This document shows positions 10,285 to 40,451 of a stretch of 53,871 nt of DNA, one piece after another; the first letter of the stretch is position 1; each line of letters begins with the position of its first letter. The stretch comes from a virus (taxonomy: Duplodnaviria > Heunggongvirae > Uroviricota > Caudoviricetes). The notes below the pieces were generated by a model, which saw nothing but the letters and a program-made list of their open reading frames with translations, was not told where the DNA came from and did not search any database. The stretch covers positions 1-53,871 of the IMG/VR virus record IMGVR_UViG_2718218453_000001; one strand, given 5' to 3'. The position numbers and the translations under genes are program-made.

Positions 10285-10480
10285 TGGTGAATAGTTGTGA
10301 GGAACAATAATGAAATAATCATTCGGAATAAAAATTTCACTTTTGATGAAAAAAAATCATAAATCACGCTACCTTCCGATGAACACTCATGAACAGTCAC
10401 TGAATACTGCCTTGTCAACCCTTCACCTCTTAACTAGCTGTATTATCAATTTTTTTATCAAAGTGAACAGTAGTGAATAG
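10285..10480. promoter_or_regulatory. Second iteron cluster (candidate crr-like replication region)
   Basis: Repeated GTGAATAG / TGAACAG / GTGAACAG motifs (10286, 10390, 10463, 10473) in the AT-rich intergenic region; ATCACGCTA is shared with the 5831 region; about 4.5 kb from the first cluster. Confidence 0.35.
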
Positions 10481-10546
10481 TATTTATTAAAGGAAAGTTG
10501 AAGATCAGACATGACACATTTCTCTGGCTAGCCAGAACAAGGTCAT

Positions 10547-10564
10547 TGTTCTGTCACTGACACA
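10547..10564 (+). promoter_or_regulatory. Delta/Ogr-dependent late promoter dyad upstream of sid
   Basis: TGT-N12-ACA inside the perfect inverted repeat ATTGT...ACAAT, centred about 80 nt upstream of the sid start codon. Confidence 0.6.
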
Positions 10565-10636
10565 ATCCCCCTCGGTAGTGCGCTTGTATGGGCATCGGCA
10601 CAATTGACACGACAACAAAACACTACCGGAGCATTC

Positions 10637-11389: not shown

Positions 11390-11940
11390 ATGCCGGAACC
11401 ATTACTCAGGAAGCTCTCAACGATTACCGCTCGGCGATAAAAAGCTGGCTGACACTACGTAATACGCAAAGTACCTACCAGCTTCGTCTGGCGGCTCTGC
11501 TGAATACTGAAGAAAAACCGGCAGCATATGCCAGCCAGCTTGAGGAGCTTCGTGAGCGTCTTGCTGTCCTCGAATGGCAGATTAACTGTGCTGCACGGGA
11601 TGGTCTTTATGCTCACCAGATTGTGCTGGAGAGTTGTGTTACAAGCGCAACGGAAAACTTCATGAGCGAGCATGGTGATGCACTCACTGACGCACTGGCT
11701 CCTTTTCTTTGCGCTCCATACGGGCTTGAGGCGGCAATGAAAATATTACGAACCGCTGTAGCCCGACAAACGGAAGTGCGTACTCCGGTAATTTCAGCAG
11801 CATACAAGAGCATTATCGACGAAACCGGATTAACGGTGGATGCATCAATGTACGCTGATGCTTCAACCAGTTTCACCCCGGCACAACATAAAGTTTTCCT
11901 GGCCCGCCTTAACCGACTTAATGAAAAAGGAGGGTACTGA
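11386..11940 (+). CDS. psu: Psu-like polarity suppression / capsid decoration protein
   Basis: 184 aa, ATGA overlap with sid; position and size match P4 Psu. Confidence 0.6.
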   Translation: MNAGTITQEALNDYRSAIKSWLTLRNTQSTYQLRLAALLNTEEKPAAYASQLEELRERLAVLEWQINCAARDGLYAHQIVLESCVTSATENFMSEHGDALTDALAPFLCAPYGLEAAMKILRTAVARQTEVRTPVISAAYKSIIDETGLTVDASMYADASTSFTPAQHKVFLARLNRLNEKGGY

Positions 11941-11941
11941 T

Positions 11942-12214
11942 ATGGCCCTGAAGTGTCCTGAATGTGGGACGGTCGCTCACGCCAGAACCAGCGCCTATGA
12001 AGCTCCATCGGTTAAACGCTCATGGTATCAGTGCCAGAATCTGGAATGTTCCTGCACATTTACCGCTCTGGAAAGCGTGGATACGATAATTATGAAGCCT
12101 TGGCGCAATGAACAGGAATCAGACAAAGAACAAATGCCAGAAAAACAACAGCAAACTCTCAACCGCTATGGCTCCGCGTCAAAGCTGTCAAGCCGTCAGC
12201 TAATTCCTGTCTGA
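11942..12214 (+). CDS. delta: Delta/Ogr-family zinc-finger late transcription activator
   Basis: CPECGTVAHARTS...YQCQNLECSCTF matches the Ogr/Delta CxxC-N22-CxxxxC zinc finger; AGGAGGG RBS. Confidence 0.85.
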   Translation: MALKCPECGTVAHARTSAYEAPSVKRSWYQCQNLECSCTFTALESVDTIIMKPWRNEQESDKEQMPEKQQQTLNRYGSASKLSSRQLIPV

Positions 12215-12238
12215 TTAGCAAAATACGCCCACGTAGTC

Positions 12239-12262
12239 CCGGTCCAGTACCGGGATTTTTTA
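12239..12262 (+). terminator. Rho-independent terminator of sid-psu-delta operon
   Basis: Stem cccggt / accggg followed by TTTTTT. Confidence 0.65.
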
Positions 12263-12289
12263 CGCCTTTTCCCTGGCTGGCCTGAAGGC

Positions 12290-12450
12290 GTATGAGTGCA
12301 TATCTATAGCGCATGAAAACGCATGAGTCTCATGCGCCATTTTTGACGCGAAAGCCCTTGTGTGGTGGCTTCTGAGACGATTTACGGGGTGCATGAAAAC
12401 CAGTCTGTTAAGCGAAGCGGGCAGGCGGGCGGGGCAGCGCACGCTGTGTA
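12290..12450. other. cos-like region of satellite (putative cohesive-end site)
   Basis: Homologous block-by-block to 28535-28695 of the prophage (gtgcatatctatagcgcatga, ggtgcatgaaaacca, aagcgggcaggcg); GGCGGGCGGGGCAGCGCAC at 12424-12442 resembles the P2/186 19-nt cohesive end as recalled. Confidence 0.5.
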
Positions 12451-12639
12451 TGGTCAAAGTAACTTTTAACTTTCAATGAGTACCTGATTGAAAGAATCGT
12501 TTATCACGTTAAAGCGATAACAATGATTTTAAGCAGCGAGTGTGGTGTAAGTATCATTGTCGAGTAAAAATGTTGCAAGCTATTGAAATAAGTATATATT
12601 GCAAATGATGAGGAAAATAAAATATGCAAGGACCTACTC

Positions 12640-13038
12640 ATGGATGCACTGCATGTCGCGCTTGAAAATCTGATTAGAGATGATGGTCAAACACTAAATA
12701 GTTATTTTAGTGAAGTTAAAGTTAATTCATTGATTGAAAATACAAATGCAACTTGTCATTTTCATTGCCTTAATCTTGATGGCAATGGACGTCCTCGGGT
12801 AGACGCGTTAATCCAATTCTTGAACGATAAAGTAGTTGATTATGCTATTCCAAGGAAAAAAATCAATGAGGCAGTGCAATATTTTAATGAAACACAATCA
12901 ACAGCGAAAATAACAAAATTAGCAAATCAAGCAAAAAATTATTTACTAGGCTTGCAAATAGTGGCGAAGGCGGTGAATTTATTCTTTTTTTATTTGCAGA
13001 GCAATTCCTTAGATTTCCACAAATTATTTGCAAAATGA
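12640..13038 (+). CDS. Hachiman HamA-like protein, N-terminal part (possibly one gene with next ORF)
   Basis: AT-rich 132-aa ORF; ends in ATGA overlap with the next ORF; a T7 homopolymer at 12985-12991 lies where the two frames are both open. Confidence 0.45.
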   Translation: MDALHVALENLIRDDGQTLNSYFSEVKVNSLIENTNATCHFHCLNLDGNGRPRVDALIQFLNDKVVDYAIPRKKINEAVQYFNETQSTAKITKLANQAKNYLLGLQIVAKAVNLFFFYLQSNSLDFHKLFAK

Positions 13039-13580
13039 GCCTGAAAACGAGTTCTCAAATGCATTACCATGGTGCAGATGGAATACATATAGGCGTAGAT
13101 AAAGATAATAAAAAATTATGTTTATACTGGGGCGAGTCTAAACTCTATTCCAATCTGAGCAAAGGTATTTCTGAGTGTATGGATAGTATAGCTCCATTAC
13201 TTCAAAGTTCTATGGGAATAGAAGGCGCTGAGACACGTGATATGCAGTTGCTGGAGTCGCACTTAAATGTTGATGATATAGAACTAGAACAAGCGTTGAA
13301 AAGATTCTTAGATCCTGATAGCCCGGATTTTAATAAATTGGAATACAGAGGAATATGCTTAGTTGGGTTTGATCTTAAAGATTATCCACAAGGGCCCAGT
13401 TCAATTGATATCAGTGAACTAGTTGCTTTGATTAATACTAAAGTCGGGAAATGGTCAACTAGTGTGCAAGGTGGTATAGTTAATAAAAAACTTGATCGCT
13501 TTGCTATGCATGTTTTTATTCTTCCTTTTCCTTCAGTAAAAGCATTTAGGGCTAGTTTAATTAAAGCATTGGAGAGTTGA
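13035..13580 (+). CDS. Putative PD-(D/E)xK-type nuclease module (HamA-like, C-terminal part)
   Basis: 181 aa; motif GVDKD...LCLYWGESK resembles a D...ExK nuclease core; stop 2 nt before the helicase ATG. Confidence 0.5.
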   Translation: MSLKTSSQMHYHGADGIHIGVDKDNKKLCLYWGESKLYSNLSKGISECMDSIAPLLQSSMGIEGAETRDMQLLESHLNVDDIELEQALKRFLDPDSPDFNKLEYRGICLVGFDLKDYPQGPSSIDISELVALINTKVGKWSTSVQGGIVNKKLDRFAMHVFILPFPSVKAFRASLIKALES

Positions 13581-13581
13581 A

Positions 13582-16164
13582 ATGTCGTTGCGAGATTTAT
13601 CTGGGTGGTTGATTAAGAATCAAGGATTCTTAAGAAAATATCAGGCATTAGTCGCTAACTCGATAAAAGATCAATTTCCAGAGTTAAAATCAGATGTAAT
13701 CCCACAGATTAGTTCTGAGGATGTCGGCTATCTTTTAACATGTGCTAGTTCTTTGGCTTTCTCAAGTGATGAGAAATGCCAAGATGCAGCCTTAAGGATT
13801 GCACAGTATTGCTTATTGAATGAAAAAAGTGAAGCAAGAAAAGATAGTGCTGCATTAATTCTTGATTCATTATCTAATAATCCAGCAATACAACTTGCTG
13901 AAAATAGGGGGTATCTTAACCCTGATTTCGAAGAAAGATTACCCTTAAAGGCTCAGTTAGAACTAACTAAAAGAAAAATTCTATATACAATTGAAATAGA
14001 TGCTGATAAGCATATTTATGCTAATAGGTTTCAATCAGAGTTTTGGGATGCGGTACAAGAAAACTCATGGGTTAGTGTCTCTGCTCCTACCTCTGTAGGA
14101 AAATCATTTATCCTGGAATCTTGGGTGGAGCAGTTTGTAAAAAGAAATAAGAATTGCTTAGTTATTTATATCGTACCAACAAGGGCATTGATTTCAGAAG
14201 TATATTCTGAGTTGCAAAAACGTTTGGATCCTAATTTAACAAATATAGTTAATATTCAGACACTACCATTGAGTAATGTATACCAGAGCGAAAAATCTAA
14301 TGTCTTCATATTTACACAGGAAAGATTAAATTTATTCTACAATCATTTCTCACAAATTCCAAAGATAGACGTCTTAGTTGTTGATGAAGCACACAAGATC
14401 GGTGATGGTGGAAGAGGTGTTATTCTTCAACATGTAATTGAACTGACTTGTCTAAATAACCCTGATTCAAAAGTTATCTTTGCAAGTCCTTTCACCTTAA
14501 ATCCTGAAATATTGCTCAGTGATGCTCCAATATTAAAAAACAAAAGAACTATAAAAAGTGACTATGTTACAGTTAATCAAAATTTAATATGGGTAGAACA
14601 AAAACCACGCAAGACCAAAGATTGGTTGATGTATTATTTTGCAAACGGTGAAAAACGCGAGTTAGGAAACTTTTCTTTAGAAAATGCACCATCTCCTGAA
14701 AGTAAAAGATTGCCTTTTGTAGCTCTTTGTTTAGGTAAGGGGGCTTCTGGTAACGTAGTTTACGTAAATGGAGCCGCTGAAGCAGAATCTACTTCCAAGC
14801 TAATATCTGCAAGTATAGAAAATGAGACTGAGGATGAAGAAATTTTAGCTCTCGTTGAGCTTAGTGAGACAATTATACATAAAAATTTCGCATTAAATCG
14901 CACTCTAAAAAAGAGAGTCGCTTTTCATTATGGCAACATGCCTTTAATAATAAAGGGCGAGATTGAACGATTGTTTAGTAAAGGTAAGATTGATTTTTTA
15001 ATTTGTACCTCAACTTTAGTTGAGGGCGTAAACATGGCTTGTAAAAATATTTTTATAAGAGGCCCTAAAAAGGGTAATTCAACCCCGATGCGAGAAGAGG
15101 ATTTTTGGAATCTTGCTGGCAGAGCTGGTCGTTGGGGAAAAGAATTCCAAGGTAATGTCATCTGCATCGATAGCGACAATGAAAAAATTTGGAATGGAGA
15201 GCCTCCAAAAACCAAAAAAAATATATTTATAACTCGCGCCACGGATGCTATTTCCCATGACATGGATAAGTTGGTTTCCTATATTTTTTCAGAGCATCAT
15301 TTTGGTATGTCTGAGCGGAATCCTAATCTCCAGAGTCTATTTAGTTATTTATGTTCATCATTTTATTTTTATAATGGCTTGGATAATAATCCTTACATGG
15401 AAAAGTACAATATAAAAAATATCGATGTTTTAAATGAAGCAATATTTGATGTTTTTGATTCTTTAACTTTTCCACACGAATTGGTTGTGCGGCATCCTGG
15501 TATAAGCCCGCTTTTAATGCAAAACCTTTGGGATAGATTTTCGCGGGATACAAACAAACCTGTAGAGAGATTACTGCTTTCTGAACCTGGTAGTAATGAT
15601 GCGTTAGATTCATATGTATCCGCATTCTCTAGAATTAGTGATACTCTGAGTAAGAAGCTAGGTTATAATTCAAAAGGAGCTTACGTACAGGCCTTGTTAG
15701 TTTCCAAGTGGATGAAAGGTTATCCCCTAGCAAGATTGATCTCGGATAGAATAAGATATAACAAAAAGAAAAATATTGTTTTCAAAGAAGCGACTTTAAT
15801 ACGAGGGGTTATGAAGGATGTTGAAGAGATCGCTCGCTATCAAGCTCCAAGGCTTTTAGGATGTTATAATGATTTATTAAAAAGCTTTTATCTTTCGATA
15901 GATCGCACAGACTTAGCAAAAGATGTTGAAGATATCGGTGTTTATTTAGAACTGGGTGTAAGTTTAAAAACTCAGATTTCACTAATAGGGCTTGGCTTTT
16001 CAAGAACTGCTGCTGTAATGATTTCAGAGCTTATTCCTAATGATAGTTTAGATGAGGAAGAATGCATTAATTGGATTAAGGACAATAAAGTTGACATGGA
16101 AGAACTGCCACAATTAGTTCAAAACGAAATACATAATATATTTCGTAACTTTTGGGTACAATAG
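13582..16164 (+). CDS. SF2 (Ski2/Lhr-like) helicase, Hachiman HamB-like
   Basis: Walker A APTSVGKS, motif II VVDEAH, motif VI NLAGRAGRWG, C-terminal RecA-like block FHYGNMP...ICTSTLVEGVNMACKNIFI; 860 aa, AT-rich. Confidence 0.8.
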   Translation: MSLRDLSGWLIKNQGFLRKYQALVANSIKDQFPELKSDVIPQISSEDVGYLLTCASSLAFSSDEKCQDAALRIAQYCLLNEKSEARKDSAALILDSLSNNPAIQLAENRGYLNPDFEERLPLKAQLELTKRKILYTIEIDADKHIYANRFQSEFWDAVQENSWVSVSAPTSVGKSFILESWVEQFVKRNKNCLVIYIVPTRALISEVYSELQKRLDPNLTNIVNIQTLPLSNVYQSEKSNVFIFTQERLNLFYNHFSQIPKIDVLVVDEAHKIGDGGRGVILQHVIELTCLNNPDSKVIFASPFTLNPEILLSDAPILKNKRTIKSDYVTVNQNLIWVEQKPRKTKDWLMYYFANGEKRELGNFSLENAPSPESKRLPFVALCLGKGASGNVVYVNGAAEAESTSKLISASIENETEDEEILALVELSETIIHKNFALNRTLKKRVAFHYGNMPLIIKGEIERLFSKGKIDFLICTSTLVEGVNMACKNIFIRGPKKGNSTPMREEDFWNLAGRAGRWGKEFQGNVICIDSDNEKIWNGEPPKTKKNIFITRATDAISHDMDKLVSYIFSEHHFGMSERNPNLQSLFSYLCSSFYFYNGLDNNPYMEKYNIKNIDVLNEAIFDVFDSLTFPHELVVRHPGISPLLMQNLWDRFSRDTNKPVERLLLSEPGSNDALDSYVSAFSRISDTLSKKLGYNSKGAYVQALLVSKWMKGYPLARLISDRIRYNKKKNIVFKEATLIRGVMKDVEEIARYQAPRLLGCYNDLLKSFYLSIDRTDLAKDVEDIGVYLELGVSLKTQISLIGLGFSRTAAVMISELIPNDSLDEEECINWIKDNKVDMEELPQLVQNEIHNIFRNFWVQ

Positions 16165-16196
16165 TCTTATTTAGACGATTTTTTAAACAATCAATA

Positions 16197-16245
16197 GAGA
16201 AGTTTTTGAATTTTATCATTCTTCCAGTAACAAAAACTTCTCTTT
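16197..16245. terminator. Bidirectional hairpin between convergent genes
   Basis: Perfect 13-bp inverted repeat AGAGAAGTTTTTG / CAAAAACTTCTCT. Confidence 0.5.
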
Positions 16246-16256
16246 TATAACACCGC

Positions 16257-16715
16257 TCAGGCTATTCCAGAATAGGCTTTGCTTACTTCACTATGCCTTG
16301 TGCCGCAATGCCTCAAAATAACAAGGCCATGTTGCAGTAACGCCTCACTACGTTCAGGTTCAAACCATTTCCCGTTAAATTTTCCTCCGTGAAAAAGATT
16401 GTTTCTTACACGGCGGATTAACAAAAAAAGAAATTTTGCTAAATCTTTTTCTTGTGGTAAAGAATCATCCCAAACTAAAGAGTCATCTTCTATGATTTGT
16501 TTTTTGGGTGGGTGTTCTTTAAAGTAGGTGATAGCAGCAATTAGCTCTGGATCAGTTGTGTTATTTATGATTTCAGAAACTTGCTTTGCATACTCATCCC
16601 AGTTCGCTTTAGCATCTTTTATTTTATGATGAAGTCCACATGCCTTAAGGCAATATTCATAACGTGAAAACTCTCTAAAGAATTCATAACATAAATTATC
16701 TAGATTATTCTCCAT
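16257..16715 (-). CDS. HEPN-motif protein (putative RNase-type abortive-infection or toxin component)
   Basis: 152 aa, AT-rich; R-x4-H motif RNNLFH near C-terminus; GGAGAT RBS; downstream of and co-directional with int. Confidence 0.55.
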   Translation of the reverse strand: MENNLDNLCYEFFREFSRYEYCLKACGLHHKIKDAKANWDEYAKQVSEIINNTTDPELIAAITYFKEHPPKKQIIEDDSLVWDDSLPQEKDLAKFLFLLIRRVRNNLFHGGKFNGKWFEPERSEALLQHGLVILRHCGTRHSEVSKAYSGIA

Positions 16716-16744
16716 GAACTATATCTCCATGTATAACAAGTTAA

Positions 16745-17944
16745 CTAATATTGATTGCGCTCGTACACTTTTTGGCCCCACCAATTCATAAGTCCTATTC
16801 GTTGCTCAAGGTAAGTTGAACGATTATATGCTCTGCGCACTTCATTTTTATCACTATGTGCAAGAGCAGCCTCAATTACATCTGCATTAAAACCCGCTTC
16901 ATTTAATGCGGTGCTGGCAATTGAACGCAATCCATGAGCAACCAATCTACCACCAAATCCAATCCTTTTTAAAGCAGCATTTGCCGTCTGGCTATTCATT
17001 GGTTGCTTTGGGTCATTCCGACTCGGGAAAACATGTTCACGATGGGCACTGATTAGCTTCATCACATCAAGAATCTCTAATGCCTGAGGAGATAGAGGGA
17101 CTATGTGTTCCCGCTTAGCCTTCATTCGTTCAGCTGGGATAGTCCAGAGCTTTGCATCGAGATCGAGCTCAGCCCACCTAGCACCGGAAGCCTCAGAAGG
17201 ACGAACTAGAGTCAGGAGTTGCCACTCAATGAGGCAGCGAGTCGGAACAGACAAATTTGACATGACGAGAGAACGCATCAGCATAGGCAATTCTTCTGGG
17301 CGCAACGTAGGCATATTTTGTTTTTTTGGCTTCTCAAAGGCCATTCCAATGCCTGATGCTGGATTGGCATCAATAAGACCAGTATTTACGGCATAAATCA
17401 TTATCTCGTTAACACGCTGCACCAACCGGCGCACCGTCTCCAGCGCCCCACGAGCTTTGATCGGTTCAAGGGCTTCAACCAGTGTTCGGGCTTTGATTTG
17501 CTGGACAGGGATCTCCCCGATGGTGGGGAATACGTCTTTTTCCAGTGAACGCCATATATCTTTAGCGTAATCATGGGTAACGCTTTTGCTTTTGAGCTGG
17601 AACCAGTTAGCGGCGACCGTCGAAAAAATACTGTCCAGAGCGATTTGCTGCTGTTCCTCTGCAACTTCAGCTTGAATTTGCGGGTCGATTCCGTTGGCTA
17701 ATAGGGCAAGGTAATCTGCTCTTAACCCTCGGGCATCAGCAAGAGAAAGGGCAGGAAAAGCACCAAGTCCCATCATAGTCCGCTGTTTTGTTGCTGGGCG
17801 TTGATAGCGAAAGCGCCAGAGTTTCTTGCCGCTAGTTTTCACTATCAGGAAAAGCCCATCGCCATCATGCAGCGTTAGATCCTTCTCTAACGCTTTCGCG
17901 CGCAGAACTTCGGTGTTGGTCAGGGGGCGTGTTGTCCGTGCCAC
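16745..17944 (-). CDS. int: P4-type tyrosine integrase
   Basis: 399 aa; N-terminal MARTTRPLTNTEVLRAKA...DGDGLFL typical of P4/CP4-57 IntA-like integrases; adjacent to ssrA core copy. First codon is GTG. Confidence 0.9.
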   Translation of the reverse strand: MARTTRPLTNTEVLRAKALEKDLTLHDGDGLFLIVKTSGKKLWRFRYQRPATKQRTMMGLGAFPALSLADARGLRADYLALLANGIDPQIQAEVAEEQQQIALDSIFSTVAANWFQLKSKSVTHDYAKDIWRSLEKDVFPTIGEIPVQQIKARTLVEALEPIKARGALETVRRLVQRVNEIMIYAVNTGLIDANPASGIGMAFEKPKKQNMPTLRPEELPMLMRSLVMSNLSVPTRCLIEWQLLTLVRPSEASGARWAELDLDAKLWTIPAERMKAKREHIVPLSPQALEILDVMKLISAHREHVFPSRNDPKQPMNSQTANAALKRIGFGGRLVAHGLRSIASTALNEAGFNADVIEAALAHSDKNEVRRAYNRSTYLEQRIGLMNWWGQKVYERNQY

Positions 17945-18258: not shown

Positions 18259-19212
18259 TTAATGCTCTGCCGCCAAAGTGCCGCCAGTCTTTCTTGAATC
18301 TTCTAATGCTTCATGATCTTTAATTAGTACCTTCAACGAGTTAATTACTTTAATTTGGCATTCCTTAATTAAGTCAGGTAATTTTTCATCAATCTTTGTT
18401 TCTTTTGAATAGAATAAAGTTCTGTTAATGCAATTTTCCAGTCCTCCACTCTCATTCAAATCGGGGAATAGTACAAATCTCCCAAATGCAATGCCATTTT
18501 CCACTTCAACATATACCTTTGGGTGCTCATCTATATAACCGTGGTGAATTATATGATTTCGTAATGATGTTACAGTGTTTATAAAATTGCTATTTTCAAA
18601 TATGGTATCCGTTGTTGTCGAAAAAACTAATTCTTTATAGTTGCCGTATAATTTATTTTTGGATATTAATTTCTTGTATTTAGAGATTGGGAAGTTACTC
18701 TTTAATAATTCAAAGGAGATTTTAGTAACGTAGTCAAACAAACTATTCATTTTTATAAATAGCATGCTTAACAAAGAAAATAGCAAGCTTGTTTTTGGCG
18801 ATTTTGCTACTAAAATCCCTTTAAAATCTTTGTCTGGTGTGGTTATTAACAAATCGCTCCAGAGTATTTCATAAAATTGTTGCGCTATAACAGAGAGTTC
18901 CAAACTACACTCTGTTATATATGAAATTAAGACTTCACAGTCTTGGATGTAAAGAATGTTTGAATCAAAAAATTGCGTTAATTTATTAAAAGTGTTTTTG
19001 CAAACTTGAGATTCCGAGTTATGACCAACATCTCTGATAGTGTAAATGTTAGATTCTTCGGCGATGGAAATCCTTTCTTTTATTTTATCGAAAATTGCAT
19101 ACAGGGCTATACTTAGATTTTCGATTTCATATTGTTCGTTTGTATAGATGATGTTATTCATCAGATCACTTCCTATTTCTATAATGGAGTTAGAGGTTTT
19201 TTGTAACTGCAT
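18259..19212 (-). CDS. Hypothetical protein, partner of RES-like gene (cargo)
   Basis: 317 aa, strongly AT-rich, ATG with AAGAGG RBS, 33 nt downstream of the RES-like gene. Confidence 0.65.
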   Translation of the reverse strand: MQLQKTSNSIIEIGSDLMNNIIYTNEQYEIENLSIALYAIFDKIKERISIAEESNIYTIRDVGHNSESQVCKNTFNKLTQFFDSNILYIQDCEVLISYITECSLELSVIAQQFYEILWSDLLITTPDKDFKGILVAKSPKTSLLFSLLSMLFIKMNSLFDYVTKISFELLKSNFPISKYKKLISKNKLYGNYKELVFSTTTDTIFENSNFINTVTSLRNHIIHHGYIDEHPKVYVEVENGIAFGRFVLFPDLNESGGLENCINRTLFYSKETKIDEKLPDLIKECQIKVINSLKVLIKDHEALEDSRKTGGTLAAEH

Positions 19213-19245
19213 CCTCTTAATACTCTACCGCCAAAACGCCGCCAC

Positions 19246-20457
19246 TTAAGGCTCAAGATAATCATGCTTCATCATTTTATGAATTAACAATTGAACTTTT
19301 TTGAATGAGGTATTATTGTAATATTCCACTAGCGATTCATCAAAATCTTCAATTGTACCTGATGCTGGAGTTGGTCCTCCCATTATGAGTCTATCTTCAT
19401 CCATACCATCGGTCTTGACGTTTAAAGTGCTAAATACTTGCCATGAAACAGGTTTGGTAAATTTAAATATATTTAGTAAGTGTGGGCAGTAATCATAACC
19501 AGAATCCAAAATATTATCCATTTTAGGTGGCATGATTATATTAATACCAATATCACTATCTTTTTGATTGAGAATTTTAGTCGTGCGATAAGCGATACCG
19601 GCTATGCCCTTATTTTCATTGCTGCTGAGCCATTGCATAAGAAGGTTGGGGATTATGTACTCAGGGTTGAAACTAGAGTTTTTATGTTGTTTTGTATAAT
19701 TACAGGCTAACACAAGTGGCCAGGAAATTAAGTTCGAAATGACCCTATTCATAGTTCCTTCAGTATCATTATCTAACAGCCATGCTAAGGTGTTTATGTT
19801 CAATGCTGATCTCAAATTATAACCAAGGTTAAGTATTCTATGTGATGAACCAGACTCTGTGATGAATGAAGATACATATAATTTATCAAAGTCTGGTTTT
19901 TCCATTTCTTGCCAACATACAAAAATAGAGGTTCCTAAATATAAACAAGGAAGGCCTGAGACTGAGTATCTTTGTGCATTCACAAGATAACGTTTAGAAA
20001 AAGGAATATGAAAGATATCACGCCTTTCTTTTATTATTTGATCGCTTTTTCTTACGCGAAATAGAGGTTTTCCAGGATGACAAAACACACTTAATGGAAC
20101 GGACATATTATAGATGTGGTCATTTATATTTGTCTTGGTGATAGCGTGATCAAATGTTAGGTAAGATTCTTTGATTTTACCGTTTAAATATAATCTAAGT
20201 GTTTCTGAAATTTTATCCGAGAGTGTTTTTGTGCTTTTTATTTTTGATTTTATTTCACGAATTACAAGGTTGTGAGGGTTTTTACTGTAAATCTTGTTTA
20301 TGACTTCTAGGTAACATTTAACCCTATTGTTAAAATCTTTAATGATATTATTTCCCGCGAGATAAGGAGCTTGTAATAGTGGTTTGGACTCTATTTCGAA
20401 TAATATTTCATTAAGCATTGCTACATAATCTGTGGTACTAATTTTATTAATTTTCAT
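19246..20457 (-). CDS. RES-domain-like protein (cargo)
   Basis: 403 aa, AT-rich; segment QRYSVSGLPCLYLGTSIFVCWQEM resembles the RES-domain core (Arg ... Glu); starts 4 nt after int stop. Confidence 0.65.
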   Translation of the reverse strand: MKINKISTTDYVAMLNEILFEIESKPLLQAPYLAGNNIIKDFNNRVKCYLEVINKIYSKNPHNLVIREIKSKIKSTKTLSDKISETLRLYLNGKIKESYLTFDHAITKTNINDHIYNMSVPLSVFCHPGKPLFRVRKSDQIIKERRDIFHIPFSKRYLVNAQRYSVSGLPCLYLGTSIFVCWQEMEKPDFDKLYVSSFITESGSSHRILNLGYNLRSALNINTLAWLLDNDTEGTMNRVISNLISWPLVLACNYTKQHKNSSFNPEYIIPNLLMQWLSSNENKGIAGIAYRTTKILNQKDSDIGINIIMPPKMDNILDSGYDYCPHLLNIFKFTKPVSWQVFSTLNVKTDGMDEDRLIMGGPTPASGTIEDFDESLVEYYNNTSFKKVQLLIHKMMKHDYLEP

Positions 20458-24609: not shown

Positions 24610-25463
24610 GCACCATCCTGAAATGGGCGGGAAATAAAACCGCAATTATGTCCGAACTGAAAAAACACCTTCCTGCTGGCCCGCGACTGGTTGAACCTTT
24701 CGCGGGTTCCTGTGCGGTGATGATGGAGACGGATTATCCAAGCTATCTGGTTGCGGATATTAATCCTGATTTAATCAACCTCTATAAAAAGGTTGCCGCT
24801 GATTGTGAATCGTTTATATCTCGCGCCAGAGTTTTATTTGAGATCGCAAACAGGGAGGTAGCTTATTACAACATAAGGCAGGAGTTTAATTACTCAACTG
24901 AAATTACTGATTTCATGAAAGCGGTATATTTCCTGTATCTCAATCGTCACGGTTACCGTGGTTTATGTCGCTATAACAAGAGCGGGCATTTCAACATTCC
25001 CTACGGTAATTATAAAAATCCGTATTTATCTGAAAAAGAAATTCGCGCATTTGCAGAAAAAGCCCAGCGGGCAACGTTTATCTGCGCCAGCTTTGATGAA
25101 ACGCTGGCGATGTTGAAGGCGGGGGATGTGGTGTATTGCGATCCGCCGTATGACGGTACGTTTTCCGGCTATCACACTGATGGTTTCACTGAAGATGACC
25201 AGTATCACCTGGCATCCGTTCTTGAACATCGAGCATCTGAAGGACATCCGGTCATTGTTTCTAACAGTGACACATCCCTGATCCGTTCGCTGTATCGCAA
25301 TTTTACTCACCACTACATCAAGGCAAAACGCAGCATCGGCGTAGCAGCTGGTGAGAGTAAATCTGCAACAGAAATCATCGCTGTTTCCGGGGCGCGCTGC
25401 TGGGTGGGATTTGATCCTTTGCGTGGCGTGGATAGTTCTGCCGTGAACGGAGTGCGTGCATGA
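24606..25463 (+). CDS. DNA adenine methyltransferase (Dam-like, orphan)
   Basis: N-terminal KWAGNK...EPFAGSCAV and catalytic DPPY motif; no adjacent restriction gene. Confidence 0.85.
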
Positions 25464-27874
25464 GCCATGCTGATATGAACAACTGCAGCGGCTTTAACGA
25501 GGCCGCCGCAGCATTCTCATGGAACAGCCCGAAAAAGGCCATTAACCCTTATCTGGACCCGGCGGAAGTCGCGCCGGTTTCTGCGCTTTCAAACCTGATC
25601 ACTCTGTACGCTGCCGATAACGAGCAGGAACAGCTGCGCCGCGAGGCACTGAGTGCTCAGGTCTGGGAGCGTTATTTCTTTAATGAATCCCGTGATCCTG
25701 TCCAACGCGAAATGGAGCAGGATAAGCTCATTAGCTGGGCAAAGCTGGCGCATGAGCAGCAGCGTTTTAATCCAGACATGGTCATTCTGGCGGACGTTAA
25801 CGCCCAGCCTTCCCATATCAGCAAGCCGCTGATGCAACGTATTGAATACTTCAGCAGCCTGGGCAGGCCAAAGGCTTATTCCCGCTATTTGCGTGAGACG
25901 ATTAAGCCATGTCTGGAACGGCTGGAGCATGTACGCGACAGTCAGCTATCCACTTCTTTTCGCTTTATGGCAAGCCATGAAGGGCTGGATGGCCTGCTGA
26001 TTCTGCCTGAAATGAGTCAGGATCAGGTGAAACGCCTGTCCACCTTGGTAGCTGCGCATATGAGCATGTGCCTTGATGCTGCTTGTGGCGATTTGTATGC
26101 CACCGATGATGTTAAGCCAGAAGAAATCCGCAAGACATGGGAAAAGGTGGCAGCAGAAACCCTGCGACTGGATGTCATACCGCCTGCGTTTGAGCAACTC
26201 CGCCGGAAAAGAAACCGCCGTAAACCCGTGCCCTATGAACTCATTCCGGGGTCGCTGGCGCGTATGCTGTGCGCCGACTGGTGGTATCGGAAATTGTGGA
26301 AGATGCGTTGCGAATGGCGGGAAGAGCAGTTGCGTGCTGTTTGCCTGGTCAGCAAAAAAGCATCTCCCTATGTCAGCTATGAAGCCGTGATGCATAAACG
26401 TGAGCAGCGCCGCAAGTCACTGGAGTTTTTCCGTTCTCATGAACTGGTGAACGAAGACGGCGACACGCTGGACATGGAGGATGTGGTAAACGCCAGCAGC
26501 AGCAACCCTGCGCATCGCCGCAATGAGATGATGGCCTGTGTTAAAGGTCTGGAGCTTATCGCGGAAATGCGCGGTGACTGCGCCGTTTTCTACACCATCA
26601 CCTGTCCGTCACGTTTCCATTCCACGCTAAATAACGGCAGGCCCAACCCGACCTGGACAAATGCGACGGTAAGACAAAGCAGTGATTATCTGGTCGGCAT
26701 GTTTGCTGCATTTCGTAAGGCGATGCACAAAGCCGGATTGCGCTGGTATGGCGTGCGGGTGGCTGAGCCGCATCATGACGGTACAGTTCACTGGCATCTG
26801 TTGTGTTTTATGCGCAAAAAAGATCGCCGCACCATTACTGCTTTGTTGCGTAAGTTTGCCATTCGTGAAGACCGCGAGGAGCTGGGTAATAACACGGGAC
26901 CACGCTTTAAGTCTGAGCTGATAAACCCGCGCAAAGGTACGCCAACAAGCTACATCGCGAAATACATCAGTAAGAACATTGACGGGCGTGGTCTGGCTGG
27001 CGAGATCAGCAAGGAAACGGGTAAATCCCTGCGTGATAACGCTGAATACGTTAATGCCTGGGCGTCTCTGCATCGTGTTCAGCAATTCCGCTTCTTTGGC
27101 ATTCCGGGGCGTCAGGCTTACCGTGAACTGCGATTGCTGGCTGGTCAGGCGGCAAGGCAACAGGGGGACAAAAAAGCAGGTGCGCCGGTACTGGATAACC
27201 CGCGCCTTGATGCAATCCTGGCTGCTGCTGATGCTGGTTGTTTTGCCACCTACATCATGAAGCAGGGCGGCGTACTGGTTCCCCGCAAATATCACCTCAT
27301 CAGAACTGCTTATGAAATCAACGAAGAACCGACCGCCTATGGCGATCACGGTATTCGTATTTATGGCATCTGGTCACCCATTGCAGAGGGCAAGATCTGC
27401 ACTCATGCGGTGAAGTGGAAAATGGTTCGTAAGGCCGTTGACGTTCAGGAGGCGGCAGCCGACCAGGGCGCTTGCGCCCCTTGGACTCGTGACAATAACT
27501 GTCCCCTTGCTGAAAATTTGAACCAACAGGAGAAAGATAAATCAGCTGATGGGGACACCAGAACGGACATTACCCGCATGGATGACAAAGAATTGCACGA
27601 TTACCTGCACAGTATGAGCAAAAAAGAACGCCGGGAACTGGCAGCGAGGTTACTCCTGGTTAAACCGAAACGGCGTGAAGACTACAAACAGCGAATTACA
27701 GACCATCAGCGACAGCAGCTCGTGTATGAGCTGAAGTCCAGAGGATTTGATGGTAGCGAGAAAGAGGTCGATTTACTCCTTCGCGGCGGCAGTATTCCGT
27801 CAGGAGCAGGCCTGCGTATCTTCTATCGGAACCAGCGTTTGCAGGAAGATGATAAGTGGCGAAACCTGTATTAA
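25460..27874 (+). CDS. A: Replication initiation endonuclease gpA (rolling-circle)
   Basis: 804 aa; active-site tyrosine pair in YIAKYISK; position and size as P2/186 A. Confidence 0.9.
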
Positions 27875-28027: not shown

Positions 28028-28216
28028 ATGCAGGACTATTTTTTGGAGTCTTTGAAGCTCCAGCGCATTGATTTTTTTCTTAAGCTTGTAGCGGCTAGTG
28101 AGTGTAGTGATGAAGAGAAGGGGCTGGCTTTGCAGTGGGTTTCTGAACTAACAGATGAACTCATGGCAAAAATCAGAACCCACGAATACAACCGCTCAAT
28201 GGATGTCATCAGCTGA
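28028..28216 (+). CDS. Hypothetical small protein
   Basis: 62-aa ORF downstream of the LexA box. Confidence 0.4.
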   Translation: MQDYFLESLKLQRIDFFLKLVAASECSDEEKGLALQWVSELTDELMAKIRTHEYNRSMDVIS

Positions 28217-28226
28217 GGTGACTTTT

Positions 28227-28460
28227 ATGCGCATTGAAATAATGATCGATAAAGAGCAGAAGATTAGCCAGTCTACACTGGACGCCCTTGAATCCGAGCT
28301 TTACCGCAATCTGCGCCCCCTGTATCCCAAAACGGTAATTCGTATCCGCAAAGGTAGCTCTAACGGTGTGGAACTGACCGGACTGCAACTGGACGAAGAA
28401 AGAAAACAAGTGATGAAAATTATGCAGAAGGTGTGGGAAGACGACAGCTGGCTGCATTAA
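28227..28460 (+). CDS. DinI-family protein
   Basis: MRIEIMIDKEQKISQSTLDALESELYRNLRPLYPKTVIRIRKGSSNGVELTG... DinI-like; GAGGTG RBS; LexA box upstream. Confidence 0.8.
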   Translation: MRIEIMIDKEQKISQSTLDALESELYRNLRPLYPKTVIRIRKGSSNGVELTGLQLDEERKQVMKIMQKVWEDDSWLH

Positions 28461-28534: not shown

Positions 28535-28695
28535 TGTGGTGCATGTCTATGCCGCATGAGATCGCATGATCGTTTGAGGATCGTTTTTGCTAAGGCCTGC
28601 CAGAACTGGCGGGCTTTTGCGTAGATCATGCAGGTGCATGAAAACCACTACATAAAGCGGGCAGGCGTGGCGGGGATACGAGCGCGCGCAAGGTA
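28535..28695. other. cos-like region of prophage (putative cohesive-end site)
   Basis: GGCGTGGCGGGGATACGAG at 28664-28682 shares its first 13 nt with the 186 cohesive end as recalled; surrounding about 150 bp homologous to satellite 12290-12450. Confidence 0.5.
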
Positions 28696-28829
28696 TAGAA
28701 ACAGTCGTTTGTTTACAAACAGATACTATGATTTTCAATGTTCTTTCAAATTGTTGCTTTAAGATAGCAGGTAGATGTTTGTAGTTGTTGCGTGAACTGA
28801 TAAGCTTCAACAACTATCGAGGAAAGGAT

Positions 28830-29897
28830 ATGAAGCGGCTAACTGAAGAACAAATTGAACATTCTTTGATCAGAGCAAGGAAGATTGCGAAGCGGGAGTC
28901 AAGAAAGCTTTCTGGTGGAAGACGGATGCTACAGCCCATGCGGGTATTCTCTCGTGTGAGAATACCCGCGCCTGCGTCATTGGACTTATTTAATACTAAA
29001 AATTACAAACTATTTATAGAGTTTATCACTTTAATCAGAGATTACATCAATGATGGTGAGAAAATTTTAATAGATTTCAGAAATACAAAATCTCTGAAAG
29101 CATGTGCAGTAATCGTATTGTATGCACATATTGACTTTTTACAAAGGCAAACAAAAGATAAAAATATAATTTCTATTACTACGTGCGGTTCACCCAGGGC
29201 AAATAACTGGTTTAAAATATGTGGTATTTGGGGGATTACAGGGTTTCAGCGTATAGCTGCAGATAAGCTTAATTCAATGGAAATTGTTTCCGCTGTTGCA
29301 GGCAAAACTAGAGATGATCATGAAAGTGCCGAAGCAAGACAAAAAATTAAAAATATTCTACGTTATATAAAAGATACCATTTATGAAGGTAAGATTTCCG
29401 CTTCGGATGGTGTGAAATTATATGCAGCATTAACTGAATCTATTAGCAATGTTGGTCTACATGCGTATTCAAATGAAGAACAGTTCTCTGAATTTATTGA
29501 GGACATTGGTAAAAGATGGTGGATATTGGCACACAAAGTCGAAGAACAACTATTTTTGATGGTGTATGATATGGGAGAAGGTATCCCAGTTACATTGGTT
29601 AAAAAAGACTTTTTCACATTTATCGCTCAGATATTTAATCCTAAGACGGATTCTGATAAAATATTCGCGGCTGTACAGTATGGTGAGACAAGAATGAATA
29701 GTCAGAAGCATGGTAAAGGATTACCTGATATGAAAAGGTATGTTGTAGATAACCCTGAGGGGCAGTTACATATTTTTAGTGGAATGGGACGATATTCTTA
29801 TGATGCTGAAAATAATGTTGAAGATAAATTTGATCTGCCATACTCCATAGGTGGAACCCTTATTCAATGGAATGTAAGTTTGAGAGGTGCTGAATGA
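28830..29897 (+). CDS. RsbW/SpoIIAB-like GHKL kinase/ATPase domain protein (cargo gene 1)
   Basis: AT-rich; GHKL motifs: N-box ESISNVGLHAY, G1 VYDMGEGIP, G2 GKGLPD; start at ATG 28830 with GAGGAAAGG RBS; inverted repeat TAGTTGTTG / CAACAACTA just upstream. Confidence 0.7.
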   Translation: MKRLTEEQIEHSLIRARKIAKRESRKLSGGRRMLQPMRVFSRVRIPAPASLDLFNTKNYKLFIEFITLIRDYINDGEKILIDFRNTKSLKACAVIVLYAHIDFLQRQTKDKNIISITTCGSPRANNWFKICGIWGITGFQRIAADKLNSMEIVSAVAGKTRDDHESAEARQKIKNILRYIKDTIYEGKISASDGVKLYAALTESISNVGLHAYSNEEQFSEFIEDIGKRWWILAHKVEEQLFLMVYDMGEGIPVTLVKKDFFTFIAQIFNPKTDSDKIFAAVQYGETRMNSQKHGKGLPDMKRYVVDNPEGQLHIFSGMGRYSYDAENNVEDKFDLPYSIGGTLIQWNVSLRGAE

Positions 29898-30214
29898 AAA
29901 TCAAAGAGATACATGTTGCTGAAGATTTTTCAGATGTTCCCTATGGCCGCTATGATGAGGATGGTCCTGATAATGGACAACGTTTCCGTGAAAAGTATCT
30001 TTTGAAAGCCATCCAAGATTATGATGAGGTGCACGTGTACCTTGATGGTGCTATGGGTTATGGTTCTTCATTCTTGGAAGAGGCGTTTGGTGGACTTTAT
30101 AGAACAAATAATATAGATAAAGCTATAATTAGGAAAAAATTAAAAATATTTACTGATTTGGATTTCCTCAAGGATAGTATATGGGGATATATTTCTGATG
30201 CTAAAAAGGAGTGA
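29894..30214 (+). CDS. STAS-like (anti-sigma-antagonist fold) small protein (cargo gene 2)
   Basis: 106 aa, ATGA overlap with gene 1; VHVYLDGAMGYGSSFLEEAFGGL resembles STAS/DUF4325-like sequences. Confidence 0.6.
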   Translation: MKIKEIHVAEDFSDVPYGRYDEDGPDNGQRFREKYLLKAIQDYDEVHVYLDGAMGYGSSFLEEAFGGLYRTNNIDKAIIRKKLKIFTDLDFLKDSIWGYISDAKKE

Positions 30215-30219
30215 TGTTC

Positions 30220-30708
30220 ATGGATGAACTTCCGGTTTATCTGCGGTTATTACAATACCTTGCTAGTTCAGGTGTGATTGCAATTCTAACAGCCTTGATT
30301 GGTTGGGTTTTTGTATATAGAAACTCCCGTGCGTTGCAAAAGAGGAGTGAAACATGGTCAATTGTAAAAAATGTTTCAGATAATTTAAAGGAAATTGAAT
30401 CTGCATCAAGAAAGTTTTGGATACCGGGAGATTCAAAAGAAATTGATGCAATGTCATTTCAAAATGAGATAACAGCACTTCTTGCGGAGACCGAGCGGTG
30501 GTTGAATCATCTAAAACAACGCATTAATATCGAAGGTGACTATAAACCTTTGATTGCTGATTTATTCAAAGATGCTACATCTAATATTGAAAAAGCACAG
30601 GAGTATGATAAAAGTCAAAGGACAAGAATTAGTGTATTAGTGTCAAAAAGGGCGAAAATAATTAAATCTCTAATTGATGAGTCTTATCAGAAAAAATTCT
30701 TAAAGTGA
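30220..30708 (+). CDS. Small membrane protein (cargo gene 3)
   Basis: N-terminal hydrophobic helix LASSGVIAILTALIGWVFVY then charged helical region; AAAGGAG RBS 8 nt upstream; overlaps gene 2 stop. Confidence 0.6.
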   Translation: MDELPVYLRLLQYLASSGVIAILTALIGWVFVYRNSRALQKRSETWSIVKNVSDNLKEIESASRKFWIPGDSKEIDAMSFQNEITALLAETERWLNHLKQRINIEGDYKPLIADLFKDATSNIEKAQEYDKSQRTRISVLVSKRAKIIKSLIDESYQKKFLK

Positions 30709-30793
30709 TAATTTGTTACGGCACGGTAGTGCCGTAGTTTTTTTTCTTATTATGTGTTGAGCGATGGATGTCCTATTAAGTGATGTAAATGTA

Positions 30794-31822
30794 TCAGAAT
30801 GAATATATTTCAAATTCTATTATTTTTTTATCAAGCCATTCATTTATCTCTCCTAAGCGTTTTTGTAATGGTATAAGTTCGTTTCGTACAAACACTTTAC
30901 TTGCTTTCTCCACATCCCCAAACCCCCCAACATTATTAGGCATAATCCCCATCATCTGAGGCGGCACGCGGTGCGCTGCCATCATGTCATCCCGACTAAC
31001 ATTTTTGATATTCAGAAATTCATCCTTCGCCGCGACTTCTGACAATGGGATGATCTGAAGCCCGTCCTTTTTGCCGTTAGGCGAGTACATAAACAGGTTG
31101 CGGAAGTTGCCTGGACCTTTGGCGCTTTTCATCGCGTTGCGGAGGTTGTTCACATCCTCCTGGTTTTGCGCGGCATCGGTCATGTACATGATAAAGCCCG
31201 CATGGCTGCCGTTAATGTAATACTTGCGACGGAACAGCGTGGCGGACTCGTTGAGCAGGGCTGACGGAATGGCAGAAAGATAGCCGGGCAGGCCGTAGAT
31301 CTCCTGGTTGATGTCCGGTTCCATCAGATGAAAAATGCTGCCTTTCGTGAACTGATACGGCTGGGTTGTCATACCGTATTGCACAAACCAGTAGGTATCC
31401 AGGTCTAATCCGCGTCGGGTGTATTTTGCCAGCGCAGGCTCAAGAGCGATAACTTCACCGAATCGGTTTGTGCGTTTCTCCAGGTAGGCGTTACCAAATA
31501 CCAGATAGTCCTGCACAAAACGCGAAAAAGCCTGCTGGCTGAGCAGCGGATGAGGGATATAGGTACTGGTCAGAATGTTGCACTTTACTGCAATCGGGGA
31601 ACTGTGATGCACGGCAGCGCGGAAGGTGCGCGCCAGTCCGTCAAAGCTGACGGGCGGCTCATACCAACGGTCCATCTGTACGCATTCCACATAGTCCAGC
31701 AGTTCTCGGCGGTCCAGAACAGGAACGGGATCGCCGAAGCTGAATGCTTCGGCTGTAGTCTGGTTTTTAAGCTGGAGCTGTTTCGTCGCCGCAGCGCGGT
31801 TCTTCTTACTCTTTCCCATCAA
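30794..31822 (-). CDS. Q: Portal protein gpQ
   Basis: 342 aa; P2 Q-like; upstream of terminase on minus strand. Confidence 0.9.
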   Translation of the reverse strand: MMGKSKKNRAAATKQLQLKNQTTAEAFSFGDPVPVLDRRELLDYVECVQMDRWYEPPVSFDGLARTFRAAVHHSSPIAVKCNILTSTYIPHPLLSQQAFSRFVQDYLVFGNAYLEKRTNRFGEVIALEPALAKYTRRGLDLDTYWFVQYGMTTQPYQFTKGSIFHLMEPDINQEIYGLPGYLSAIPSALLNESATLFRRKYYINGSHAGFIMYMTDAAQNQEDVNNLRNAMKSAKGPGNFRNLFMYSPNGKKDGLQIIPLSEVAAKDEFLNIKNVSRDDMMAAHRVPPQMMGIMPNNVGGFGDVEKASKVFVRNELIPLQKRLGEINEWLDKKIIEFEIYSF

Positions 31823-39650: not shown

Positions 39651-40451
39651 ATGTCTGAAAAGTTAATTTTTTTATCCCATATAACAGAAGAAAAAGAATT
39701 AGCGAAAATAATCAAAGATGCAATTGAAGACGAGTTTTCTGGATTCGTTGAAGTGTTTGTATCGTCAGATGGGAATACAATTAAAGCCGGTCAAAATTTC
39801 TTAAATGTTATTGAAAATGGGTTAGTAAATTGTATTGCTGCTATTTATCTGATAAGCCCAGAATCTGTCCAGAGAAGCTGGATTAGTTTTGAGTTAGGGG
39901 CTGTATGGGTTAGAAATGCTATCAGCCGGCAAAACGGCGGGCCAGAAATCCCTGCTATTCCTTTTTGCCACTCGGATATGACGTTTAGAGACTTGCCCCA
40001 ACCTATCTGTAATCTAAATGGTATTGAAGCAAACCGATCTCATTCCTTGGAGTTTGCATTTAAGTCGATTCAGACCGCTGTTGGAGGAAAAGGACGATTG
40101 AGAACTGATTTTGATGTTCTTGCCGAGAAAGTTAACATTTTTGAGAGAGATTATACAGTCTTCAAAAGTATAGGCGAAATTCTCGGTTTAATTGGTGTAG
40201 ATAGCCAGCGTCGCGCACAATTAGTTCAGCTTGTTAATAGTTCAGCAGAGAATGAAGTTATAATTAAAACTGATACTAGGCAGGATTCAGCAGATATAAT
40301 ATTTAAATTAGTTGATACTAAGTTAAGTCATTTCGCTAAATATAAAGTAACATCTTCTGGTTTAGGTATGGGACTTCAAGGCGCTTCTCCTTTCTGTGAA
40401 TTTGAATTGAGAATGGATCGGAAAATACTCAGTGATTACTTGGCTCGATAG
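39651..40451 (+). CDS. TIR-domain-like protein (cargo in S-V slot)
   Basis: AT-rich 266 aa; N-terminal IFLSHITEEKELAKIIKDAIED...VEVFVSS...ISPESVQRSWISFELG resembles TIR motifs including a conserved Glu; AGGAGGG RBS. Confidence 0.65.
   Translation: MSEKLIFLSHITEEKELAKIIKDAIEDEFSGFVEVFVSSDGNTIKAGQNFLNVIENGLVNCIAAIYLISPESVQRSWISFELGAVWVRNAISRQNGGPEIPAIPFCHSDMTFRDLPQPICNLNGIEANRSHSLEFAFKSIQTAVGGKGRLRTDFDVLAEKVNIFERDYTVFKSIGEILGLIGVDSQRRAQLVQLVNSSAENEVIIKTDTRQDSADIIFKLVDTKLSHFAKYKVTSSGLGMGLQGASPFCEFELRMDRKILSDYLAR

Follow-up and report, generated by a model that had tools for sequence, protein, structure and literature searches.

The subject of this analysis is a three-gene cassette of IMG/VR virus record IMGVR_UViG_2718218453_000001 (Caudoviricetes), positions 1 to 53,871; this whole stretch of 53,871 nucleotides is referred to here as the window. 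Three same-strand AT-rich genes (28830-30708) are placed between a cos-like site and the portal gene Q of a P2-like prophage, and they encode a predicted kinase (gene 1), a STAS-like protein of the DUF4325 family (gene 2) and a small membrane protein (gene 3). The reading favoured here, for which we see the chances as evenly balanced, is that the prophage carries in this cassette a complete, self-contained switch by phosphorylation, built like VapKSC but with the membrane protein as its output. As far as its sequences can tell, the cassette is a membrane-protein version of the VapKSC switch, previously undescribed as such. A preliminary description of the locus had read it as a partner-switching kinase module wired to a membrane effector; the structural part of that reading has stood, and a role in defence would still follow only by analogy. 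The domain architecture, the homology with VapK and VapS, the aligned invariant serine, the conserved operon and the location on mobile elements and in a hotspot were computed directly.

The system used for comparison was described by Chambers et al. (EMBO J 2026; PMC13373217) and consists of the kinase VapK, the STAS antitoxin VapS and the PIN toxin VapC. VapK is a STAS-GHKL protein which single-stranded DNA (ssDNA) activates and which phosphorylates Ser48 of VapS, a STAS domain with a short tail, whereby the PIN toxin VapC is freed. The system gives about 2-log protection against phage Bas42, and this protection is lost in VapS S48A, VapC D28A and VapK F54A. In CapKS the kinase is likewise activated by ssDNA, and serine phosphorylation releases the STAS protein from its partner (PMC13373217).

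Genes 1 and 2 were placed by means of profiles and fold searches; single-sequence PDB searches with the two proteins returned noise only, including a spurious T7 portal match for gene 2, and were set aside. For the comparison of the kinases, residues 1-286 of VapK were transcribed from the AlphaFold file of PMC13373217. An hhalign comparison matched the family profile of gene 1 to both domains of VapK (93.9%; E 1.6e-7; 255 columns aligned), with a BLASTP identity of 22% between the two proteins, and by this profile evidence gene 1 is a distant VapK homolog. The predicted protein is made up of a basic N-terminal helix, a STAS domain and an RsbW-type GHKL domain, which is the architecture of VapK and CapK. 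The preliminary description had left the N-terminal region of about 200 amino acids unplaced, and this region is now divided into the basic helix and a STAS domain internal to the kinase. In the AlphaFold2 model the helix is formed at residues 6-26 (residues 25-33 are of low confidence), and the N-terminal segment is basic throughout the family alignment.

The claim of an RsbW/SpoIIAB-type GHKL module in gene 1 is borne out by the motifs and by the fold. Twenty homologs of gene 1, with identity down to 24%, all keep E203/N207/H211, D247/G249, G295/G297/L298 and G342/T343. The fold search assigned the kinase domain to the RsbW/SpoIIAB type, with true anti-sigma factor kinases as the closest folds, and the match with Pfam HATPase_c (PF02518) reached 19 bits (E 0.002), which is below the cut-off of 26.4. 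Genes 1 and 2 together thus present the combination that is typical for RsbW and SpoIIAB, a GHKL serine kinase with N, G1 and G2 boxes and a single-domain STAS partner.

Gene 2 had been described as STAS-like, and it belongs to Pfam DUF4325 (STAS-like) with an E value of 3.5e-12 and 46.3 bits against a cut-off of 23. Its predicted phospho-acceptor, Ser59, is invariant in 23/23 orthologs. The best PDB match of the gene 2 family profile was VapS (9z7o, E 0.13), with Ser59 falling exactly on VapS Ser48, and the same pairing of the two serines was given by hhalign (E 6e-5, probability 64%). The VapS fragment is itself a member of DUF4325 (E 2.5e-14), and a tblastn search of plasmids with this fragment, made to find vapKSC, returned one marginal hit. 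Separately, PHROG 5816 has 441 positions, of which gene 2 covers no more than the last 100 at the C-terminal end, and gene 1 does not match this profile; for this reason PHROG 5816 was not used as Rosetta-stone evidence. Some phage proteins appear to carry a gene 2-like STAS domain fused behind a large N-terminal part which is unlike gene 1.

Gene 3 is a small single-pass membrane protein with one N-terminal transmembrane (TM) helix, as had been proposed. Its mechanical open reading frame (ORF) begins at GTG 30211; the Shine-Dalgarno sequence AAGGAG at 30206-30211 fits best with ATG 30220, which lies 5 nt past the stop of gene 2 and is also the RefSeq start. The overlap of gene 3 with the stop of gene 2, as first described, therefore holds only for the starts GTG 30211 or ATG 30214 and falls away with the best-fitting one, while the ATGA overlap of genes 1 and 2 was read as described. 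In the structural model (pLDDT 88) the single TM helix runs on into a four-helix bundle, and an enzymatic fold is absent. A small-residue face of the TM helix (G18/A21/A25/G28) is conserved, as is the juxtamembrane motif NSRxLQxRSETW. The residues following the TM helix are strongly basic (YRNSRALQKRSE), and by the positive-inside rule the bundle should therefore be cytoplasmic. No family was found for gene 3 in Pfam, NCBIfam or PADLOC, and a PIN match was also not found there. The label 'DUF2489' which UniRef gives to one homolog was not reproduced by Pfam on gene 3 itself and was ignored.

The distribution of the three genes was then considered as a unit. The gene 1 profile matched 4,007 clusters in a 50%-identity library, of which 1,377 were below 1e-30; nearly all of the matched clusters are full-length proteins of about 350 amino acids. 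Scanning of one genome per species gave 22 related loci from Gamma-, Beta- and Alphaproteobacteria, Planctomycetes and Verrucomicrobia. At every one of the 22 a gene 2 homolog comes directly after the kinase, and after it a protein of 140-219 amino acids with an N-terminal hydrophobic (TM) segment, the junctions between the genes being overlaps or gaps of a few bases. The kinase subfamily with the C-terminal GTLIQW motif thus co-occurs with a TM partner in 22/22 loci. All of the third genes are united into one family by iterated profiles, and in a leave-one-out test with the cytoplasmic tails only, 22 of 24 third-gene tails scored above every one of about 820 decoys, shuffled tails included. 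By these sequence comparisons the trio is a conserved system and no chance cargo. The third proteins of six loci (L007-L012, for example L007 6303-6956) have a second TM helix at the C-terminus, by which the bundle is anchored at both ends; this subgroup comes from Shewanella, Cellvibrionaceae, Piscirickettsiaceae and other gammaproteobacterial metagenome-assembled genomes.

The same three parts could be wired in the other direction, with gene 3 as a sensor or anchor which responds to events at the membrane or to injection by taking up or letting go of the STAS protein, and with the kinase as the output, binding a host or phage factor in an anti-sigma-like manner as in classical RsbW/SpoIIAB partner switching. 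The nearest folds of the kinase domain, being true anti-sigma factor kinases, would suit such an arrangement; four-helix bundles are common sensor modules in membrane receptors, and some members of the third-gene family have the second C-terminal TM helix flanking the bundle. We consider this arrangement quite improbable, as neither a sigma factor nor any other candidate target is found in the cassette or conserved beside it. No sigma factor or PP2C phosphatase is annotated among the neighbours of the cassette in the prophage, and neither of them is among the 25 commonest of 121 neighbour families at the 22 loci. The sensor arrangement would also lack a phosphatase to reset the switch, the positive-inside rule puts the bundle in the cytoplasm beside the STAS protein, and in the characterised relatives it is the STAS partner, and not the kinase, that is the output.

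The location of the cassette agrees with a known cargo site of P2-family phages, as had been supposed. The three ORFs form an AT-rich cassette beside cos, within a low-GC block at 28,690-30,790; the GC content is 0.32-0.37 over 28800-30800 and 0.51-0.58 in the flanking P2-type phage genes. The cos-like site GGCGTGGCGGGGATACGAG (28664-28682, plus strand) is a single match, with 3 mismatches, to what we take to be the P2/186 cos consensus, and it is kept in Klebsiella and Serratia prophages. The backbone can be aligned with 86 P2-like phage records as far as query position ~229-232, i.e. to about 28690 in the window and about 8 nt past cos, and the cargo therefore sets in immediately behind cos. 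In an identical prophage annotated by RefSeq the order of genes is integrase, CI, further genes, replication endonuclease A, a 62-aa ORF, DinI, the cassette, portal Q and terminase P. The cassette therefore occupies the position at which P2-like phages vary in gene content, with replication gene A (plus DinI) on one side, portal gene Q on the other and cos adjoining; Rousset et al. 2022 defined this cos-proximal gpA-gpQ region as a hotspot. The DinI-like gene (Pfam DinI E 6.6e-23) and the 62-aa ORF, at 28028-28460 between gene A and cos, belong to the conserved backbone, occur in Klebsiella prophages as well and do not count among the variable cargo.

The same trio occupies the gpA-portal slot of P2-like prophages of Klebsiella (87% identity, very common) and Serratia (61%), and a close ortholog of the cassette is common in Klebsiella pneumoniae prophages. 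A divergent trio of kinase, DUF4325 and one-TM protein is carried in the hotspot of P4 satellites (Rousset system 69). In the cultured temperate Marinobacter phage AS1 (MK088078.1; 2399-4777 of locus L029) the trio AS1_41/40/39 stands directly after a CI-like helix-turn-helix (HTH) gene which is divergent from cro, and this position suggests expression in the lysogen. The exact proteins of the E. coli cassette were found on about 800 to >1000 contigs of E. coli and Salmonella, and the cassette is present in 20 of 5,426 complete E. coli genomes, among which no diverged DNA relative of genes 1-2 was seen; a megablast of the phage collection did not bring up the cassette DNA. The 22 loci have 115 neighbours between them, in which phage integrase is the most frequent family (7), and SmpB, lambda P, transposases and phage structural genes are also present. 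The genomic context of the trio is clearly mobile, and the hotspot slot, the carriage by several mobile elements and the frequency of integrases as neighbours were counted for the switch.

On the favoured reading the switch would work as follows; its phosphorylation step, its trigger, the complex of genes 2 and 3, a toxic action of gene 3 and any effect on phages are all inferred. In the resting lysogen the unphosphorylated gene 2 product would bind the four-helix bundle or the juxtamembrane segment of gene 3 and keep gene 3 inert. A cue associated with infection or damage, which is ssDNA in the relatives, would activate the STAS-GHKL kinase; the sensor surface of gene 1 differs from that of the relatives, and sensing may involve the basic N-terminal helix. 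The kinase would then phosphorylate Ser59 of gene 2, the phosphorylated protein would let go of gene 3, and the freed gene 3 product may associate with itself through the small-residue face of its TM helix and damage or depolarise the inner membrane. Growth would thus stop before a competing phage finishes its cycle, by abortive infection or exclusion. Because no phosphatase is encoded, the switch would be one-way and irreversible, and irreversibility is more in keeping with suicide or exclusion than with homeostatic regulation.

The cassette is already present in published catalogues. In Table S5 of Rousset et al. 2022 the identical gene 1 and gene 2 proteins are given as P2 hotspot system 61 ('DUF4325', 68 occurrences, '1 TM in protein 3'), and the exact accession combination of the cassette is listed there as well. 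The summary row of system 61 carries a different third protein of 214 amino acids, which is a distant member of the gene 3 family by the tail profile, and the P4 system 69 is labelled 'HATPase_c | DUF4325'. The table of tested systems in Rousset et al. 2022 was found to hold no entry for the cassette, which appears in catalogue rows only, with no mechanism proposed. None of the three proteins matched a system model of PADLOC-DB v2.0.0 at E <= 1, NCBIfam gave nothing useful for them, and literature searches with DUF4325, with STAS and defence and with the protein accessions returned no study of this cassette. The earlier statement that it was not recognised as any named defence system thus stands as regards PADLOC, but it needs to be amended by the listing as system 61 and by the existence of VapKSC as a characterised relative. 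With the catalogue of 2022 and the kinase-STAS switch described in 2026, the cassette is not categorically new.

A candidate with a similar annotation was recorded by DefensePredictor (Science 2026) as 'VPUS' in Table S6: it comes from an ECOR strain and consists of a hypothetical protein, a STAS-like protein and a hypothetical protein over 1,871 bp, with a log-odds of 5.75. After cloning under pBAD it was entered as defensive = FALSE, and it carries no DS name. Its three proteins are WP_000060412.1, WP_001244589.1 and WP_000154254.1, encoded at 24729-26599 of NZ_QOYT01000008.1. The VPUS accessions are absent from the Rousset tables and from the cluster listings; VPUS may be a member of the cassette family or a vapKSC relative.

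Several points weigh against the switch as proposed. Gene 2 resembles VapS only weakly in sequence (PDB search, E 0.13; hhalign, 64% probability), and the model of gene 3 shows a generic helical bundle only. The aromatic residue of ssDNA activation (VapK F54, CapK W68) is aligned with Ser88 of gene 1, in a variable column; because of this replacement the trigger is not given by the relatives, and ssDNA may be bound elsewhere on the gene 1 product. VPUS, an E. coli three-gene candidate which is likened to the cassette by its annotation pattern alone, was scored non-defensive. The neighbourhoods of homologs, which the preliminary description had proposed to survey for signs of defence islands, also spoke against it: known defence genes are rare near the 22 loci, and a defence-island enrichment was not shown.

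Two of these points would be expected if the same switch served as a toxin-antitoxin (TA) or stress-response element, whose kinase senses DNA damage or global stress, prophage induction for example, and whose membrane protein arrests or kills the cell and thereby stabilises the prophage or times its induction, protection from phages being incidental or absent. The negative result with VPUS and the few known defence genes near the 22 loci are consistent with such a role, and so is the tightly coupled order of antitoxin before toxin, which is typical of TA pairs. VapKSC itself was presented as a TA system that reacts to DNA damage, in a paper which emphasises how fuzzy the line between immunity and stress response is (PMC13373217). 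Mechanistically this is the same switch as in the favoured reading and only the biological role is different; competition between mobile elements would agree with the position in a hotspot and with the repeated presence in P2 prophages, P4 satellites and a lambdoid phage, and the TA or stress role is considered rather unlikely.

The flanking DNA was analyzed for regulatory sequences, and both the 9-bp inverted repeat and the GTTTGT-TT-ACAAAC palindrome which had been pointed out earlier are present. At the palindrome, TTTACAAACA is common to the window and the Klebsiella ortholog. The inverted repeat ends 4 nt 5' of the ribosome binding site of gene 1 and is preceded by a weak promoter-like region; the chance expectation for such a repeat in this stretch is about 0.1 by a rough estimate. 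In the Klebsiella ortholog the arms differ, and a 5-bp core (GTTCC/GGAAC) still pairs by two changes made on both arms, with the loop TGAACTG.TAAGCTT conserved. This hints at a candidate operator or 5' hairpin, two compared sequences being too few for a claim. Scanning upstream of gene 1 gave no convincing sigma-70 promoter, the count of promoter-like matches was that expected from shuffled sequence, and the candidates picked manually were weak.

Inverted repeats upstream of the operon, and the kinship of the kinase-STAS pair with CapK-CapS, would be in keeping with a transcriptional regulator of the CapK-CapS type which controls neighbouring phage genes upon DNA damage. This is very hard to credit and was already disfavoured, as gene 2 with its 106 amino acids has no winged helix and gene 1 has no HTH; in addition, the strong terminator of the cassette, called at 30715-30738, faces the convergent portal gene, and hence there is no downstream operon to regulate. 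The coordinates of the cassette features are collected in Table 1.

Table 1. Positions of the cassette genes, their predicted domains and motifs, and the flanking features in the window
Feature	Position	Strand	Remarks
Palindrome GTTTGT-TT-ACAAAC	28707-28720	.	At cargo start; read from sequence
Perfect 9-bp inverted repeat TAGTTGTTG / CAACAACTA	28782-28790/28808-28816		17 nt between arms
Shine-Dalgarno-like AGGAAAGG of gene 1	28820-28827	+	Read from sequence; conserved in Klebsiella
Gene 1, VapK-like kinase, 355 aa	28830-29897	+	Start ATG 28830; alternative TTG start 28785
Gene 1 residues 1-45, Lys/Arg-rich N-terminal segment	28830-28964	+	14 K/R and 4 D/E counted
Gene 1 residues ~37-160, internal STAS domain	28938-29309	+	
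Gene 1 residues ~163-352, GHKL kinase/ATPase domain	29316-29885	+	
Gene 1 N box, E203/N207	29436-29450		
Gene 1 G1 box, D247/G249	29568-29576		
Gene 1 G2 box, G295/G297	29712-29720		
Gene 2, DUF4325 STAS-like, 106 aa	29894-30214	+	ATGA overlap with gene 1 at 29894-29897
Predicted phospho-acceptor Ser59 of gene 2 (codon)	30068-30070	+	
Gene 3, single-pass membrane protein, 162 aa	30220-30708	+	Alternative starts GTG 30211, ATG 30214
Gene 3 TM helix, about residues 12-33	30253-30318	+	
Intrinsic terminator, 10-bp stem then T run	30715-30748	+	Closes the cassette
Portal gene, convergent	30794-31822	-	Directly past the cassette terminator

Other cargo was also observed in the window. A P4-like satellite (6020-17944) with primase-like, Icd-like, two psu-like and ogr/Delta-like genes and an integrase is situated directly beside the P2-like prophage, and its hotspot carries a Hachiman system. 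HamB of this system (13582-16164) is intact (PADLOC E = 0), and HamA is split into two ORFs (12641-13012 and 13035-13580), the second of which matches only profile positions 134-312; because of the split the system may be inactivated. A TIR-domain protein of 266 amino acids (39651-40451, plus strand; Pfam TIR_2 E 1.5e-7, with weak PADLOC matches to PDC-S66 and SpbK) is encoded by a gene inserted between the P2 tail genes S and V, which is a second cargo site of the prophage. This gene is intact in the window, whereas strain 4012 (NZ_CP103626.1), whose prophage is identical in all else, has an IS1 within it. Between the P4 and P2 integrases there are two neighbouring genes (316 and 402 amino acids; 18259-20457, minus strand) for which neither Pfam nor PADLOC gave a match; their place is the integrase-att edge of the P2 prophage, named as a minor defence hotspot in a preprint of 2026.

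Taken further, the cassette could represent a large, phylogenetically broad and unnamed three-component immune system in which a one-way serine switch on a STAS antitoxin gates a membrane-anchored four-helix-bundle toxin and the kinase senses a cue other than ssDNA; we regard this wider claim as possible and on the doubtful side. Its breadth is that of about 4,000 kinase clusters at 50% identity, with a range that extends from Enterobacteria as far as Planctomycetes and includes phages of the P2, P4 and lambdoid kinds; the non-ssDNA cue is proposed on account of the absent key aromatic residue and the additional basic helix at the N-terminus. If the switch model holds, the kinase-STAS phospho-switch would be a general and exchangeable trigger module of bacterial immunity, a membrane effector would join the known outputs CapS (a transcriptional repressor) and VapC (a PIN toxin), and a TM helix with a four-helix bundle and no enzymatic fold would make a new toxin class. 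The cassette would also allow the evolution of the sensor to be tested, since the residue by which the relatives contact ssDNA is not conserved here. As carriage in E. coli, Salmonella and Klebsiella pneumoniae is frequent, any phenotype would bear on phage-host range in clinically important species. The failure of the similarly annotated VPUS in a large screen is a caution, as the cassette may be active only when natively expressed or when a particular trigger is present. The breadth, the conserved three-gene architecture, the different sensor surface and the non-enzymatic membrane output make the cassette a worthwhile experimental target.

Among the known systems, lambda RexA-RexB, like other prophage exclusion systems with a membrane effector, pairs a prophage-borne cytoplasmic sensor with a membrane protein, and rexAB lies directly after cI. 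The cassette shares with it the combination of a cytoplasmic sensor and a membrane protein on a prophage, and the AS1 trio follows a CI-like gene as rexAB follows cI; there is no sequence or fold relationship, and the analogy is one of logic and genomic position only. With the partner-switching pairs RsbW-RsbV and SpoIIAB-SpoIIAA of Bacillus and SiaB-SiaC of Pseudomonas the cassette has in common a single-domain STAS-type substrate with a serine at the start of helix 2. It differs from RsbW and SpoIIAB in having no sigma factor target or PP2C phosphatase, in a kinase which carries its own STAS domain and in a membrane protein as the output.

The resemblance to CapK-CapS lies in a STAS-GHKL kinase, which in CapKS phosphorylates its STAS partner on a conserved serine, and in the presence of the module on mobile immune loci. 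An HTH stands at the N-terminus of CapK, and CapS, a DNA-binding repressor, ends in a winged helix, whereas neither is present here: gene 1 had no HTH family match and its N-terminus is a single helix, and the 106 amino acids of gene 2 hold the STAS-like domain only, with no winged helix. CapKS is placed upstream of the immune operon (CBASS, Bub or Thoeris) which it represses, whereas the cassette ends at a terminator.

The closest correspondence is with VapKSC. Both are three-gene operons in which a STAS and GHKL kinase comes first, a small DUF4325 STAS protein with a conserved serine (Ser59 here and Ser48 in VapS) comes second and the third gene is the presumed output, and a phosphatase is encoded by neither. 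Gene 1 differs from VapK in an extra basic N-terminal segment of about 45 amino acids and in its distinct kinase subfamily (C-terminal GTLIQW), with only 22% identity to VapK and a marginal similarity of the STAS protein to VapS. A further difference is in the third gene, which is a PIN nuclease in VapKSC and here a single-pass membrane protein with a four-helix bundle.

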